Source: Eledone cirrhosa (Eukaryota). From it: a stretch of DNA of 64,000 bases. Shown piece after piece: positions 34,947-57,306 of the stretch. The notes under the pieces were generated by a model. It was not told where the DNA came from. It worked only from the letters and a program-made list of their open reading frames with translations, and did no database searches. The stretch is taken from the NCBI GenBank assembly GCA_964016885.1, contig OZ024740.1:277884001-277948000 (forward strand). The letters run 5' to 3'. Made by a program: the position numbers and the translations under genes. Position 1 is the first letter of the stretch. Each line of letters opens with the position of its first letter.

Positions 34947-37875
34947 TAAATGAAGTAATTCCGTCGGAAAAGTCCAGGAAAAAAGAGTGCTCTATGTAGG
35001 TAACAGAGCTTAATTATTATTATGTAATAAACAACATAAGGCAATTATTCCATTTACCAGTGGTTTCTTAAAAGCAAAAGGTTTTGCTTTCAATCCTCAG
35101 AATGAAAAAATCCTGGTTTGTTTATTGAATTTGGATTTTAAAAACAAAAATGCAATCTATATGAAAGTGAGGCGGGAGAAGGAAAAAGGAAAGGAAAAAT
35201 AAAATATAACTACACATGCAAACACACACAAAAAAACACAAAAGCATACATACACACACACATATACATATATATATATATATATATATATATATATATA
35301 TATATATATATATATATATATATATTCATATATACATATACACATATATATACATACACATATATACACATACACATACATACACATAACCTCACACATA
35401 CACACAAAAACAAATATACACACATATATATATATACATATATATATACATATATACACATATATATATATACACATACACACATATACATGTGTGTACA
35501 AGCATACACATACACAAACATAGCCATACACACATATACATACATACATTCACACATTCATACATATATACACACGTACATACACATACATAAATGCACT
35601 CCTCTACATATTCACACACGCAAATAAATATAACAAAAAAATATATATATATATTAAAAATATTTGACACCGATACATAAGGCAGCTAACTGGACAGACA
35701 CGCGTGGTAAGTAATACACACAAATGCACGTATACATACGTACGAAATAGTAAATACATACACACACTCTCACACCTAAATATACATATACAAATACATA
35801 AACACATACATACACATACATGCACAAACACGCACACGTATACAATACATACACACACATATGTATATGTAATTATATACACACACACATATATATATAT
35901 ATATATATACATAAATATAAACATACACACACACACATATATATGTATACATACACACACATATACATACATAGCTATACAATTATACACATACAAATAC
36001 GTACATATAAACACGCACAACCAAATACAAACACACACACACACACACACATATATATATATATATATATACACACGCACATATACACACACATATATAT
36101 ATATATATATATATATATATATATATATATATATATATATATATATATATATATATATATACATACATATATATACAAATGCACACACATACACACACAC
36201 ATACATGTGTGTATGTGTAAAACTCAGTCTTAGATAATTCATATGAACCTTACATATACATATATATAGTAGTAAAGTAATAAAGCAACATAAGGCAATT
36301 ATTCCATTCACCAGTGCTTTCTTAAAAGCAAAAAAAGTTTCCTTCAATCTTCAGAATGAAAAAAACCTGGTCTATCCACATATACATACATAAACACACA
36401 CAAATATATACATATATATACACACATACACATACACACACATACATATATATATATATACATACATATATACATATATATATATACACACAAATATACA
36501 TACACATACACATAGGTATGTGAAGGGAAAGGCAAAAAATAATATATGGGGGGGGGGGACATAAGAGAAGGTGAAATATAAGGGGAGGTAAGGGAGAAAA
36601 AATAAGTAAATATACAAGAGTACAGAACGTAGAATCAGCAAAACAAAACCGTAGCAGAAGTAAAGAGCAGGAAAGGAGTTCAAGGCGGTTGATTTATCAT
36701 AGGAGTGTCAATCCAGTTGCAGATCAGATGCGATTTCAGATGTGGACAGCATCTGAAGATCTCAGTCTTTGAGTTAAGGCAAGCGGAAGTGGCTCTCAAG
36801 TTTAGCAAAATCCTATACTTTTCTGTGGTACACAAAGAACAATTCTTTGTGCCCCTTTTTTAATATATATATATATATTTAATATATATATATATTTGTG
36901 CCCCTTTTTTAATATATATATATATTTTTAATATATATATATTTTTTTTGTTATATTTATTTGCGTGTGTGAATATGTAGAGGAGTGCATTTATGTATGT
37001 GTATGTATGTACGTGTGTATATATGTATGAATGTGTGAATGTATGTATGTATATGTGTGTGTGTATGGCTATGTTTGTGTATGTGTATGCTTGTACACAC
37101 ATGTATATGTGTGTATGTGTATATATATATATGTGTATATGTGTATATATATATGTATATATATATGTGTGTATATACGTGTGTGTGTGTGTATGTATGA
37201 GGTTAGGTGTATGTATGTGTATGTGTATATATGTGTATGTATATATATCTGTATATGTATATATGAATATATATATATATATATATATATATATATATAT
37301 ATATATAACGAAGGAAATGTGGTAAGGAACCAGGTGGACCATAACGCACCAAAGTACTCAATACTTGAGGTAGTAGAGTGGGTAATAGGAACCAGTAAGA
37401 CCCCGACAGCTGAGCTCAAGCCGTTTCGACGGCTAATTCTGGACTCCAGATGTCCAGAATTAGCCGTCGAATGTCCAGCCGTGGATGTCCAGAATTAGCC
37501 GTCGAAACGGCTTGAGCTCAGCTGTCGGGGTCTTACTGGTTCCTATATATATATATATATATATATATATATATATATATATATATATATATATATATAT
37601 ATATATATATATATATGTGTGTGTTTGTGTGTGTATGTATGCTTTTGTGTTTTTTTTTGTGTGTGTGTTTGCATGTGTAGTTTTATTTTATTTTTCCTTT
37701 CCTTCTTCCTTCTCCAGCCTCACTTTCATATAGATTGCATTTTTGTTTTTAAAATCCAAATTCAATAAACAAACCAGGATTTTTTCATTCTGAGGATTGA
37801 AAGCAAAACCTTTTGCTTTTAAGAAACCACTGGTAAATGGAATAATTGCCTTATGTTGTTTATTACATAATAATA
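34947..37875 (-). mobile_element. Large fold-back, microsatellite-rich insertion, probably a non-autonomous PLE
   Basis: 35015-35662 is inverted at 36915-37875 (interrupted by 37308-37545); a diverged tandem copy of the terminus lies at 36270-36372; one-sided tail at 34947-35014. Confidence 0.7.
37308..37545 (-). mobile_element. Fold-back element family A, copy 1
   Basis: 78 bp tail plus arms TAGGAACCAG...CTGGAC and its complement; inside (TA)n. Confidence 0.85.
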
Positions 37876-37914
37876 TATATATATATATATATATATATAT
37901 ATATATATATATAT

Positions 37915-38128
37915 AGCGGCGGAATACTGGAAGGTAATATCCGTAGTGGTAGAGCACTCAGTCCATGGGATGAGTTAGGTAGAAGTGGTTACACGACAGT
38001 TAGTTCCCCATACGAGAACAATTGTTTCACCTTAGTGGATCCTCAGCTCGGAAAACCGAGCTGAGGATCCGCTAAGGTGAAACAATTGTTCTCGGTATGC
38101 TGAACTAACTGTCGTGTAACCACTTCTA
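37915..38128 (-). mobile_element. Fold-back insertion of a Hydra-like PLE terminus
   Basis: Arms 37980-38051 and 38056-38128 with AAAA loop; tail 37915-37979; the arm matches 45154-45232. Confidence 0.85.
38056..38095 (+). ncRNA. Minimal hammerhead motif (mirror copy at 38012-38051, minus strand)
   Basis: CCGAG-CUGAGGA-UCC(GCUAA)GGU-GAAAC-AAUU-GUU^CUCGG; palindromic AACAAUUGUU stem III; 5 bp stem I. Confidence 0.8.
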
Positions 38129-38921
38129 TATATATATATATATATATTTATATATATATATATATATATATATATATATAAATATATATATGTGTGTGGG
38201 TGTGTGTGTATATATATGTATATGCCTGTATATGTGTCTGTGTATATATATATGCACCCAAGTGTGTGTGTGTTTGTGTGTGTGTCTGTGTCTGTAAGTG
38301 TAGATAATGTAATATCAAGTTTTATTCTGTACATTTAATTCTACAAATTAAGCAATTCCTCTAAACCTGAGATAAAGTATATATTCAAATAATTGCGCGG
38401 AGATTCATGCTCTCATCTGCAAAGAATCCTCAAGTCGCTTTCTCGGCAGAGAGAATACATCTCCGGTAATTTAATTTGTTAGAATTTGTTGCGTTTTTTT
38501 GCTAACATATGAACGGCGACATGGTCTTCAAACTATTGGGTTCTTGTACGTCTACGTTGAATCACACTCAACAGCTCTATTAAGATTAGTATTGTAGTGC
38601 TGATACTTGTGTCGACATTTTGAAATTATTTCTGTCTTTGGAGTTTAGATATATTTTGTTTTATTGAGCAGTATGCATGATGCAGAAGGGCAATATAAAC
38701 TTGATTATATTATAGTTATCTATATCAACTTCTTTCAAATACCTAATAGGTGTACTTACCTCCAAAACTAAATATAATGGATGCCAACTGCCGTTCGCTC
38801 CTATTCAAGCATAGAAACATTCACCAAAGTGCTATTTCTTACAATATACATATAACGATATCAAGGCAATGGTTTAGCAATATATGTTAAAGGATGTTTT
38901 ATGCATGTCTTCCTAACATTT

Positions 38922-39101
38922 TGGCAGTATCGGTAGAGGGTCGGAGGCCATGCTTTGACGTATAGAGTTACTGTCCTTGCCATTCTGAGTTCAAATCCCG
39001 CCGAGGTTAACTTTGCCTTTCATCCTTACAGGGTCGATAAAATAAAGTACCAGTAATGCACTGGTTAATTGCTGGCCTTGTGCCAAACGTAGAAATAATT
39101 A
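38922..39101 (+). mobile_element. SINE family S
   Basis: Matches the consensus, lacking about 10 nt at the 5' end. Confidence 0.9.
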
Positions 39102-39487
39102 TCTACGATTCTCGCATGTTTTCTCAATATACTGTTCAGTGATTTGTAAAGTTTAAGTTTTGAAAATATCTGTATAGATGTAAAGATCGAATAACTCCCA
39201 TAGAATATTCCCCATTCGGTAAGGAACCAGCCTGTTGCCTAACATAATGTTGTGTAATATCGATTGTATGTACCTGTATACAGCAACCAGTTATATAGCT
39301 CGCTCACAAATTGTTAGTATATATTAATATATATATATATATATATATATATATATATATATATATATATATATATATATATATATATATATATATATAT
39401 ATATGAAAAGTTATATTTAAATTGTTGGGTTAACAACGAGTAAATATTTATAACTGATATAAAAGCACTCAACAAGTATTTGGAGTA

Positions 39488-56009: not shown

Positions 56010-56080
56010 AAATAATTGTTTCTACTTTTGGCACAAGGCCAGCATTTACCCAGTACATTACAGGTACTTTATTTTATCGA
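56010..56080 (-). mobile_element. 3' fragment of SINE family S
   Basis: ATAATTGTTTCTAC...TTTATCGA. Confidence 0.8.
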
Positions 56081-56084
56081 ATAA

Positions 56085-56444
56085 ATTGAACCACATTTAG
56101 TAGATATATCCGAGGCTCCTACGGAACTACAAGTTGAGTTATTTGAGTTGGGGGAAGATAGTATCCTCAAATCCCTTTTTGACGCTAAAAAGGATCCCAT
56201 AGAAATCTGGTCAAATGCTGTTGAATATCCATGCCTACGAGAGCATGCATGCCGTTTACTTTCCTGCTTTGGAAGTACTTACTGCTGCGAGTCAACATTT
56301 TCTCTCATGACCAAAATTAAAACTACTTTAAGAACGCAAACCACAGATGCTCATTTAGAGGATCAATTAAGGCTGCGCGTTACGAAGCTTGATCCAAATA
56401 TTCAATTACTTTCAAGCAAGAAACAAATGCAAATATCCCACTAA
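56085..56444 (+). pseudogene. C-terminal dimerisation region of a hAT (SPIN/GTF2IRD2/Buster-like) transposase
   Basis: AP.ELQ.EL.EL, YP.L...A..LL..FGSTY.CE..FS.M..IK...R......HLE..LR, P.I..L...KQ.Q.SH*. Confidence 0.88.
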
Positions 56445-57099
56445 CTTGAATTTTCCATCGGATTTTAAAATTATTTTACGTATTGTTGCTATGTTAGTTT
56501 TTTTTACCTTAATATTATTATTTTTCTATCGTATTTCTTTATAAATATGTGAATACAGAAATATTTTATATTGTAACTTTTATGTTAAATAATAAATAAA
56601 TGACTATAAAACTATACAAAAACTATAATAATTTCACAAAAGTCGCATTTATAGGTAATATATTCATTGACAATAGAATGAGTACATCAAATTATAAAGA
56701 AAGGTGCTGTTAAAAGATTTTAGGCGAAACTGTCTCTACGCTTTATTTTACCATTAATTCCATGGTGAGCTTCAAAAGTATTTCCATTTTAAAAGATGAA
56801 AGGTATGTACGTGTATGAAAGTGTATGTGTCTGTGTAATTTATGCGTACGCTTGTGAATATGGTTATACAAAGAATGTAGGTGCAATGTCATGTATAAAT
56901 GAATATATATAGTAGATATTTGCATTTTAAGTATATGTGTACGTGTATATATATATATATATATATATATATATATATATATATATATATATACGTACAT
57001 GGCATTGCACCTACATTCTTTGTATAACCATATTCACAAGCGTACGCATAAATTACACAGACACATATATATATATATATATATATATATATATATATA

Positions 57100-57306
57100 A
57101 CGAAGGAGGTGTTGTAAGGAACCAGGTGGACCATAACGCACCTGAGTACTCTATACTTAGGTTAGTAGAGTGGGTAATAGGAAAATGTTCAAGACCCCGA
57201 CGGCATACCTCAAGCCGTTTCGACGGCTATTTCAGGCCTAAACTAGTCCGGTAATAGCCGTCGAAACGGCTTGAGCTCTGCCGTCGGGATCTTGAACATG
57301 TTCCTA
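57100..57306 (-). mobile_element. Fold-back element family A, copy 5
   Basis: Same tail, with arms around an imperfect central hairpin. Confidence 0.85.

Follow-up and report, generated by a model that had tools for sequence, protein, structure and literature searches.

Half-hammerhead palindromes in the Eledone cirrhosa genome: stub copies of a Penelope-like element, probably built from two separately primed cDNAs

The window analysed here is a stretch of 64,000 nucleotides from Eledone cirrhosa (assembly GCA_964016885.1, contig OZ024740.1, positions 277,884,001 to 277,948,000). It contains five short elements that carry the 3′ half of a hammerhead ribozyme, most of them arranged as head-to-head palindromes, which raises the question of how half a ribozyme comes to be inserted repeatedly in this form. 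An earlier note on the same DNA assigned the elements to a Penelope-like element (PLE), and suggested that a stem of the ribozyme makes the nascent complementary DNA (cDNA) snap back and copy itself. We find that the elements are derivatives of a PLE, of the Hydra clade, and that the two arms of the palindromes are independent copies. It is probable, if some way from certain, that the stubs are insertions into (TA)n in which two separately primed cDNAs each ran to the 5′ end of a short RNA.

The defining motif, GAAAC-GGC-NN-GAGCTC-N-GCY-GTC, has eight matches in the window, compared with 0.00 expected from 100 shuffles (pattern GAAACGGCNNGAGCTCNGCYGTC, at most three mismatches):

37405, minus strand
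37504, plus strand
40902, minus strand, two mismatches
44984, plus strand
48990, minus strand, one mismatch
49049, plus strand
57199, minus strand, two mismatches
57263, plus strand

The half-hammerhead motif described in the earlier note is therefore real: helix III in the window copies has 5 bp and a loop with the palindromic GAGCUC, followed by GUC. The note was also correct that none of the five copies contains CUGANGA, as judged by reading. The common unit, in the + orientation of 44970–45106, is 5′-..CAGAATTAGCCGTC-GAAAC-GGC-TTGAGCTCA-GCT-GTC^GGGGTCTTACTGGTTCC-TATTACCC..(~82 nt)..CCTCCGTTA-(TA)n. All five copies sit between (TA)n tracts, and the insertions are ~140–240 bp long. Direct reading and mapping on the full-length parent (locus L031, described below) indicate that the copies at 37308, 40812, 48971 and 57100 are head-to-head palindromes, and that the copy at 44970 is a single tailed arm and not a palindrome. 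The palindromes are lopsided, with a tail of ~85 nt (~82 nt) on one arm, while the other arm halts at GGTTCC|(TA)n. Rfam gave no match at gathering score in the whole window, and no hammerhead family is present among the 150 listed of the 154 matches at E ≤ 10 for 36000–58500. The arms are as follows, where r denotes parent coordinates (L031 position minus 3999), percentages are identities, and sites A and B are the two outer ends defined below.

37308..37445, minus strand: copy 1, long (site-B) arm, tail and hammerhead 3′ half, r990 to r850, blastn 100%
37452..37471, plus strand: copy 1, extra partial repeat between the arms, r851–870, blastn 100%
37487..37546, plus strand: copy 1, short (site-A) arm, r851–910, ending GGTTCC|(TA)n
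40812..40925, minus strand: copy 2 (degenerate, of a copy-4-like subfamily), long arm with tail, inner end ~r866, r977–932 at 89% and r924–866 at 82%
40927..40953, plus strand: copy 2, short arm consisting of GCTGTC^GGGG...TTTTCC alone, with its inner end in helix III, read directly
44970..45106, plus strand: copy 3, single site-B arm without inverted partner, r854–990, 99%, (TA)n on both flanks
48972..49027, minus strand: copy 4 (diverged subfamily), short site-A arm, r892–860, 85%
49031..49171, plus strand: copy 4, long site-B arm with tail, r860–975, 84%
57100..57242, minus strand: copy 5 (third subfamily), long site-B arm, r990–847, 86%
57244..57304, plus strand: copy 5, short site-A arm, from r849 (r849–898, 88%), ending GTTCC|(TA)n

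The window stubs match the junction between the pseudo-long terminal repeat (pLTR) and the 5′ untranslated region of a full-length element. A far upstream extension was found in three of the first loci examined. Locus L031, a 9.9-kb stretch, is one complex insertion bounded by (TA)n and composed of an inverted arm of 579 nt, which begins at the end of the tail, a 5′-truncated copy, and a full 3,118-bp unit that ends GGTTCC|(TA)n. Its layout is pLTR–ORF–pLTR, with 3,118 bp between ribozymes and an open reading frame (ORF) of 786 codons downstream of the ribozyme. The longer genomic copies with a PLE ORF that the earlier note had anticipated are thus present.

The ORF has 661 homologues at E ≤ 0.001 among 7,998 scored candidates. 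An AlphaFold model built on 35 homologues has a pLDDT (predicted local distance difference test) of 84.3, and its best Foldseek matches in the PDB are chains of TERT, the telomerase catalytic subunit (E 4e-8, probability 1.00), with other reverse transcriptases (RTs) next. The translation contains motifs of the Hydra clade, compared by eye, namely SDKTGN (DKT), LRWR (with R for the K of RWK), CNCPDRSIC (CxCX5C), CNLCSEE (CxxC..E) and ACKH (CxH). Its C-terminus resembles GIY-YIG, again by eye (VIYQC...YIGLT...R..H..E..N); Pfam gave no match for residues 640–786, and PF01541 occurs in 26–50% of members of the Atlas neighbours. These neighbours are annotated as GIY-YIG, RVT_1, HTH_animal and DUF8422. 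Because of the pLTR–ORF–pLTR layout, the TERT-like RT fold, the Hydra-clade motifs and the Atlas neighbours, it is concluded that the elements are stub copies derived from Hydra-clade PLEs, which bears out the original assignment to a PLE.

By its sequence, the parent carries a predicted complete type-I hammerhead with a U3/A8 variant of the core, laid out as follows.

r796–806: helix I, 5′ strand, GGAAUUACCCC
r807–813: core box, UUGAGAA
r814–822: helix II, 5′ strand, G-A-U-CGGCUA
r823–859: loop 2, 37 nt
r860–867: helix II, 3′ strand, UAGCCG-UC
r868–870: core, GAA
r871–889: helix III, ACGGC-UUGAGCUCA-GCUGU
r890/891: predicted cleavage, C^G
r892–907: helix I, 3′ strand, GGGU...UUCC

In its minimum free energy (MFE) fold three helices meet at a junction, helix I being the open one; the energy itself is unremarkable (z-score −0.28). 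The motif in the stubs is the 3′ half of a real hammerhead, as the earlier note held. RNAalifold recovers the three helices as the consensus of 23 full copies from at least three subfamilies, in which 91.1% of cells pair, as against 24–51% when the partners are slid. Compensatory change is limited to one pair (GC in 16 copies, AU in 7). The first core box reads UUGANAA in 20 copies, UUGAUGA in one and CUGAGAA in two, N7 being free to take all four bases; GAAA is invariant, and the cleavage triplet is GUC in 18, GUU in three, AUC in one and GCU in one. Rare CUGAGGA copies occur in wider listings of full ribozymes. The earlier note had predicted CCC-CUGANGA immediately upstream of the central hairpin. 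The 5′ half is indeed located there, but with a different core, the parents reading ACCCC-UUGAGAA (U3/A8). Replacement of C3–G8 by U3–A8 is known in PLE hammerheads (PMC4209133).

Copies in the 3.0-Gb genome were counted by exact patterns, each with its reversed pattern as a control:

32-mer across GAAAC..GTC^GGGGTC: 10,329 matches, control 0
32-mer in the tail: 19,400 exact matches, control 0
Full ribozymes, TTGAGAAG-N44-56-GTCGAAACGG: 2,932 matches, control 1
Palindromes with both arms ending at most 15 nt upstream of the 3′ strand of helix II: 15,251 matches, control 0

Many stubs are 99–100% identical to the full-length element. For a sample that was not anchored on the ribozyme, the first 100 places of the tail 32-mer were taken, minus the full copy of L031 itself. 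The resulting 99 insertions (L032–L130, nine known palindromes included) were mapped on the parent by blastn. An adjacent inverted arm is present in 78 of them, giving 177 arms, and 75 palindromes were used to compare arm reach and joints. A second sample of 20 palindromes, anchored on the ribozyme, is able to detect pairs that lack the tail.

The two arms of the palindromes are independent copies. In 22/75 palindromes the tail-less arm extends beyond the tailed arm in the 5′ direction by 5 nt or more (15 nt or more in 14), and the reverse is true in 11/75 (15 nt or more in one), the arms ending within 5 nt of each other in the remaining 42/75. The tail is never found in the short arm. Each arm thus holds sequence that the other lacks, and so both must have been copied from RNA. 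At the joints the arms overlap by as much as 14 nt or are separated by up to 27 nt (−14 to +27), filler of 1–27 nt being present in 31/75. Both the arm ends and the filler differ from copy to copy, which argues for independent insertion events rather than copies of one master. The same head-to-head layout is also found with arms that are hundreds to thousands of nucleotides long.

The outer ends of the insertions are strictly paired. One outer end of each insertion lies at site B (..CGTTA|, r989/990) and the other at site A (..GGTTCC|TAT, r907–910); the two sites are 82 nt apart on the parent. Full-length L031, too, has B and A as its two ends. The outer end of the 78 inverted arms is at r910 in 66, at r901 in five, at r990 (B/B) in one and elsewhere in six. 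In the ribozyme-anchored sample r990 is paired with r910 in 19/20 and r923 with r910 in 1/20, with 0/20 for both A/A and B/B. The A/A combination would be expected to dominate if sites were chosen independently. It does not, and the outer ends are therefore coupled. Read directly, both ends lie at UAU, which is able to pair with the TA repeat. We infer that a single protein dimer primes the two target strands, one at site A and one at site B, perhaps on the same RNA molecule.

In a sub-variant (L045, L047, L064, L074 and L097, the 5/78 inverted arms already counted at r901), the short arm ends beside ..ATAGGAGTA and not GGTTCC|(TA)n. A direct repeat in L031, CTGGTTCCT(A)TTACC(C)AC at 4899–4916 and 4961–4978, lies at site A and ~20 nt before site B, and may be part of what the protein recognises at both start sites.

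The inner ends are concentrated at what we call the wall. Among the 177 arm ends, 113 fall at r846–856, an 11-nt window within loop 2, ~12–22 nt upstream of GAAAC, and two fall at r796–845. By arm type the distribution is:

Tailed-arm start (n = 99), r844–859: 57
Tailed-arm start, r860–867: 5
Tailed-arm start, r868–884: 6
Tailed-arm start, r885–898: 13
Tailed-arm start, r899–910: 5
Tailed-arm start, inside the tail: 6
Tailed-arm start, r818: 1
Tailed-arm start, upstream of the ribozyme: 6
Inverted-arm inner end (n = 78), r844–859: 59
Inverted-arm inner end, r860–867: 6
Inverted-arm inner end, r868–884: 7
Inverted-arm inner end, r885–898: 4
Inverted-arm inner end, upstream of the ribozyme: 2

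The tendency to turn beside stem II, proposed from the five window copies, is strong genome-wide, as the number of wall–wall palindromes above also indicates. It does not extend to the degenerate copy at 40812, whose arms end outside loop 2, one ~2 nt upstream of GAAAC and one within helix III. In diverged subfamilies the turn falls at the corresponding position, 17–19 nt from GAAAC whether helix II has 6 bp or ~11 bp. The further-reaching arm ends at A850/G851 in 19/49 and at A846 in 9/49, both purines after a pyrimidine. The sequence TTAGT at the wall is kept in 21–23 of 23 sequences, compared with as few as 8/23 in the surrounding loop. Arms that pass the wall tend to do so together: of 64 clusters drawn from the first 100 full-ribozyme places, 28 are head-to-head, against the 2.6% expected under independence with 9/177 arms passing (P = 2e-27), and the opposite orientation is nearly absent. 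Since passage is common to both arms, the stop is a property of the template.

Two further kinds of joint were seen at the wall. Between the arms of copy 1, a direct 20-nt repeat of r851–870 is accompanied by 15 nt of filler, as if the polymerase had re-started once at the wall. In L106 and in contig joints mapped on L031 (5074, 5119 and 5161 to 4848–4854) the arrangement is head-to-tail, with a copy starting at the wall (r848–855) preceded by r1075–1162; the upstream partner in such joints lies 85–170 nt into the next unit. They look either like jumps from the 5′ end of an RNA into the interior of a second template or like additional sites of RT initiation.

A smaller class of arms ends at the predicted ribozyme cut. 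Ends at r890–892 number 9 in the 177-arm sample, compared with 2.79 expected (P = 0.0024). Genome-wide there are 299 palindromes with both arms ending at r881–896, of which 50 loci were listed and tallied by hand. In 21 of these 50 both arms end exactly at G891, the first base after GUC; 13 have 1–6 nt of untemplated filler, which fixes both ends, and eight are direct ACCCC|GGGGT joints. A further 9/50 have joints centred on GAGCTC of loop 3, at the edge of the gap range, and 20/50 are mixed. Hammerhead cleavage leaves G891 as the 5′ end. The arms of this class look like run-off on self-cleaved RNA, so that cut RNA would have served as template in roughly 1–2% of events, with the arms running to RNA ends.

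In the nine loop-3 loci (for example C1:93348206-93348259) the arms meet exactly on the self-complementary GAGCTC. The palindromic loop 3 may double as a joining site, identical cDNAs being able to pair only at palindromic sites. Single-nucleotide filler was considered as a cap-derived extra G, being G or C in 7/7 of the joints with a long arm that ends at the wall (L052, L067, L078, L082, L090, L108 and L112, the last with a truncated inverted arm) and A or T in 7/7 at G891. This was not counted as evidence, because filler that equals the next templated base is absorbed into the arm, which partly hides A and T.

By analogy with the G891 arms, which appear to run to RNA ends, the main wall may be read as the 5′ end of the commonest template, and the shared inner end then likely marks where the template RNA began. 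We propose the following course of events. The protein of the element would nick both strands of a TA repeat (following PMC11167929), and each 3′ end would prime reverse transcription at a fixed internal position of the RNA, either A or B. The two cDNAs would run 5′-wards to the RNA end and would then be joined head to head. Most templates would begin at r846–851, the predicted transcription start of the element itself, at a conserved initiator-like TTAGTCC, and primary transcripts would thus contain the 3′ half of the ribozyme only. A minority of templates would be read-through RNAs cut by the complete ribozyme, giving stubs that begin at G891, and long read-through templates would give the rare long arms.

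TTAGT with its flanks, TTAGTCC, fits YYANWYY, which is the initiator consensus. An internal promoter with initiator and downstream promoter elements (Inr/DPE) is described for Penelope of D. virilis by Schostak et al. (2008, PMC2377424). These two points, the near-invariance of TTAGT and the preferred purine ends at A850/G851 and A846 speak for a transcription start at the wall. The fuller proposal is that the promoter of the element fires inside its hammerhead, and that run-off cDNAs, in the form of the 15,000-plus stubs, preserve the 5′ ends of RNAs, the wall being the transcription start, G891 the cuts made in vivo, and the A/B pairing one dimer on one RNA. We put this forward tentatively, as a possibility rated a little below an even chance.

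Several points weigh against these proposals. Ends at the wall scatter over 11 nt, in contrast to the single-nucleotide precision of the G891 class, and one focused start should give sharper joints; the arm ends are blastn boundaries, which at palindromic joints are possibly 1–3 nt off. TTAGT lies within the ribozyme and could be conserved for folding. The mapped start of D. virilis Penelope is upstream of the ribozyme (PMC4209133, PMC2377424), and a start inside it would be unusual. The younger subfamilies alone have an AT-rich, TATA-like box, CTATTTAAATACC, ~30 nt upstream of A850; since the copy-4 subfamily lacks it, the box was dropped as a general argument. No run on record as RNA holds the element, and the start at r846–851 and the cut at r891 are predicted from DNA. 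Four contig runs of unclear type, which behave like DNA, showed no starts, and their summed depth echoes copy-number steps near r840–866 and after r990. The RT start sites of an anole PLE are alike on both strands, which does not in itself predict strict A/B pairing (PMC11167929). The ribozyme covariation is a single pair in related sequences, and the Rfam hammerhead models gave no match at E ≤ 10 on L031 4700–5000. Finally, Pfam searches with the whole ORF, two parts of it and one homologue found no relevant family, RVT_1 not being detected directly, and PDB sequence searches with the ORF protein and a 35-sequence profile gave nothing meaningful.

The alternative that survives best is that the wall is a roadblock, at which RT on long RNAs halts at r846–856, because of the folded ribozyme or a bound protein, and then switches template. 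A steric block might be fuzzy over 11 nt, the wall adjoins, on the 3′ side, a small inner hairpin of loop 2 in the MFE fold, and no RNA 5′ ends are on record. Correlated passage is also explained if both arms are copied on one RNA molecule and share its folded state. An RT that has come as far as the wall, however, will have opened helix I, helix III (GC-rich, 5 bp) and the 3′ strand of helix II, and the inner hairpin is AU-rich and weak. The copy-4 subfamily, with its longer helix II and an unrelated loop 2, still ends at the same distance from GAAAC, at a conserved TTAGTTC. Arms share one stopping point whether they begin at A or at B, which means that distance from the start does not set it, and the G891 class indicates that joints of this kind do arise when cDNA runs off an RNA end. 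We regard a roadblock as unlikely, but as a serious competitor.

Much less credible is the model of the earlier note, in which the nascent cDNA is folded back by stem II and serves as its own template, with loss of the catalytic 5′ half. It accounts for turn points beside helix II, for joints that form hairpins, and for the palindromes whose arms end within 5 nt of each other. Neither arm can have copied the other, however, given the unique sequence in the tail-less arm in 22/75 palindromes and the tail that the short arm lacks. The 5′ strand of helix II (r814–822) is absent from the stubs, only two of the 177 ends lying at r796–845. What had been described as a central hairpin like a native stem II is in fact two inverted copies of the helix II 3′ strand. 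Filler at 31/75 joints, the same layout in much longer arms and in arms that end at G891, where stem II has no role, and the constant distance of the wall from GAAAC with either length of helix II all speak against it, and we consider snap-back very improbable.

Amplification of one or a few palindromic non-autonomous masters as units, in the manner of a miniature inverted-repeat transposable element (MITE) or a foldback element, is less probable still and was rejected on joint diversity: although it would suit the very high copy number, the terminal inverted repeats in TA-rich targets and the few joint forms that recur, arm ends and filler differ between copies, the same recurrent forms are found in two subfamilies, which suggests a favoured reaction and not shared ancestry, many stubs are almost identical to the full-length element, and stubs lack sequence upstream of r846.

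Other features lie nearby. L031 contains, at 986–2176 on the minus strand, an open frame of 396 codons with an RT motif of the long interspersed nuclear element (LINE) type (LLYADDL) and a zinc-finger-like stretch, which adjoins the PLE insertion in the same TA-rich region. In the window, 36000–58500 consists mostly of (TA)n and (TG/TA)n tracts, which lead to dozens of spurious sub-threshold microRNA (miRNA) matches (mir-297, mir-1277, mir-3149). At 50273–50364 there is a near-perfect hairpin of ~90 nt with 35-bp arms, CTTTCTTTGTTTCTGTGCCTTTCC..., with sub-threshold matches on both strands to many unrelated miRNA-precursor models (58–60 bits, against cut-offs of 76–100). It is probably another small inverted-repeat element rather than a miRNA.

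Two questions about PLEs are at stake here, namely how tandem and inverted insertions with a one-sided tail are formed, and whether the hammerheads cut in cells, for which PMC11167929 found cut-site ends in none of its reads. Young minimal insertions number in the thousands in this genome, with both partners of the junction legible at single-nucleotide resolution, and the two questions become testable on one RNA of ~300 nt and one protein.

The closest relatives are the PLEs with a C-terminal endonuclease (EN) of the Hydra clade (Craig et al., 2021, PMC8557442). They resemble the present element in having a single ORF of ~720 aa after the first Met, a unit of ~3.1 kb, and an RT followed by a C-terminus that here, read by eye, is GIY-YIG-like, with DKT for DKG, an RWK-like RWR, a CxCX5C linker, and CxxC and CxH around the EN motifs. 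They also share (TA)n insertion, a pLTR hammerhead, partial tandems, inverted 5′-truncated copies and a one-sided tail; the last two are typical of PLEs according to the same source. They differ in their canonical CUGANGA core, where ours is UUGANAA with a loop 2 of ~39 nt, and in a tail of 30–40 bp rather than ~82 nt; the likeness is set by motifs and layout.

The PLE hammerheads described by Cervera and de la Pena (2014, PMC4209133) are likewise of type I and located in pLTRs, with U3–A8, a conserved G10.1–C11.1, a bulge on the 5′ side of helix II, a palindromic loop 3, and motif pairs on opposite strands 100–700 bp apart. Unlike their minimal helix III of 1–2 bp, ours is a stable 5-bp stem with a 9-nt loop, and helix II carries a long insert.

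The element PAc (Poseidon) of Anolis carolinensis was studied by target-primed reverse transcription in vitro, in which both target strands were cleaved and extended (Frangieh et al., 2024, PMC11167929). It uses two adjacent internal RT start sites downstream of the ribozyme with the tail between them, its protein is a predicted dimer, uncleaved RNA is the main template, and targets are AT-rich. Our A/B layout, the tail between start sites, the AT-rich target, and the proposed extension of both target strands and dominance of uncleaved RNA agree with this. In contrast, PAc start sites have no homology to the target, whereas both of ours lie at UAU; the two strands are equal in PAc, whereas here nearly every insertion pairs an A end with a B end; and among PAc reads none ends at the ribozyme cut, the very position at which one class of the present DNA copies begins.

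The elements are thus ordinary debris of a known kind of retroelement with a known insertion layout, and the classification is unchanged. In LINE-1 twin priming, reverse transcription of the RNA from the second target strand leaves the 5′ part inverted, the two segments being different parts of the RNA. The present insertions would be alike in second-strand priming and differ in that both arms cover the same stretch (r850–910) from two fixed sites. What goes beyond the ordinary, on our reading of these sequences, would be the strict pairing of A and B, the sharp class at the predicted cut, and a likely template start inside the ribozyme.

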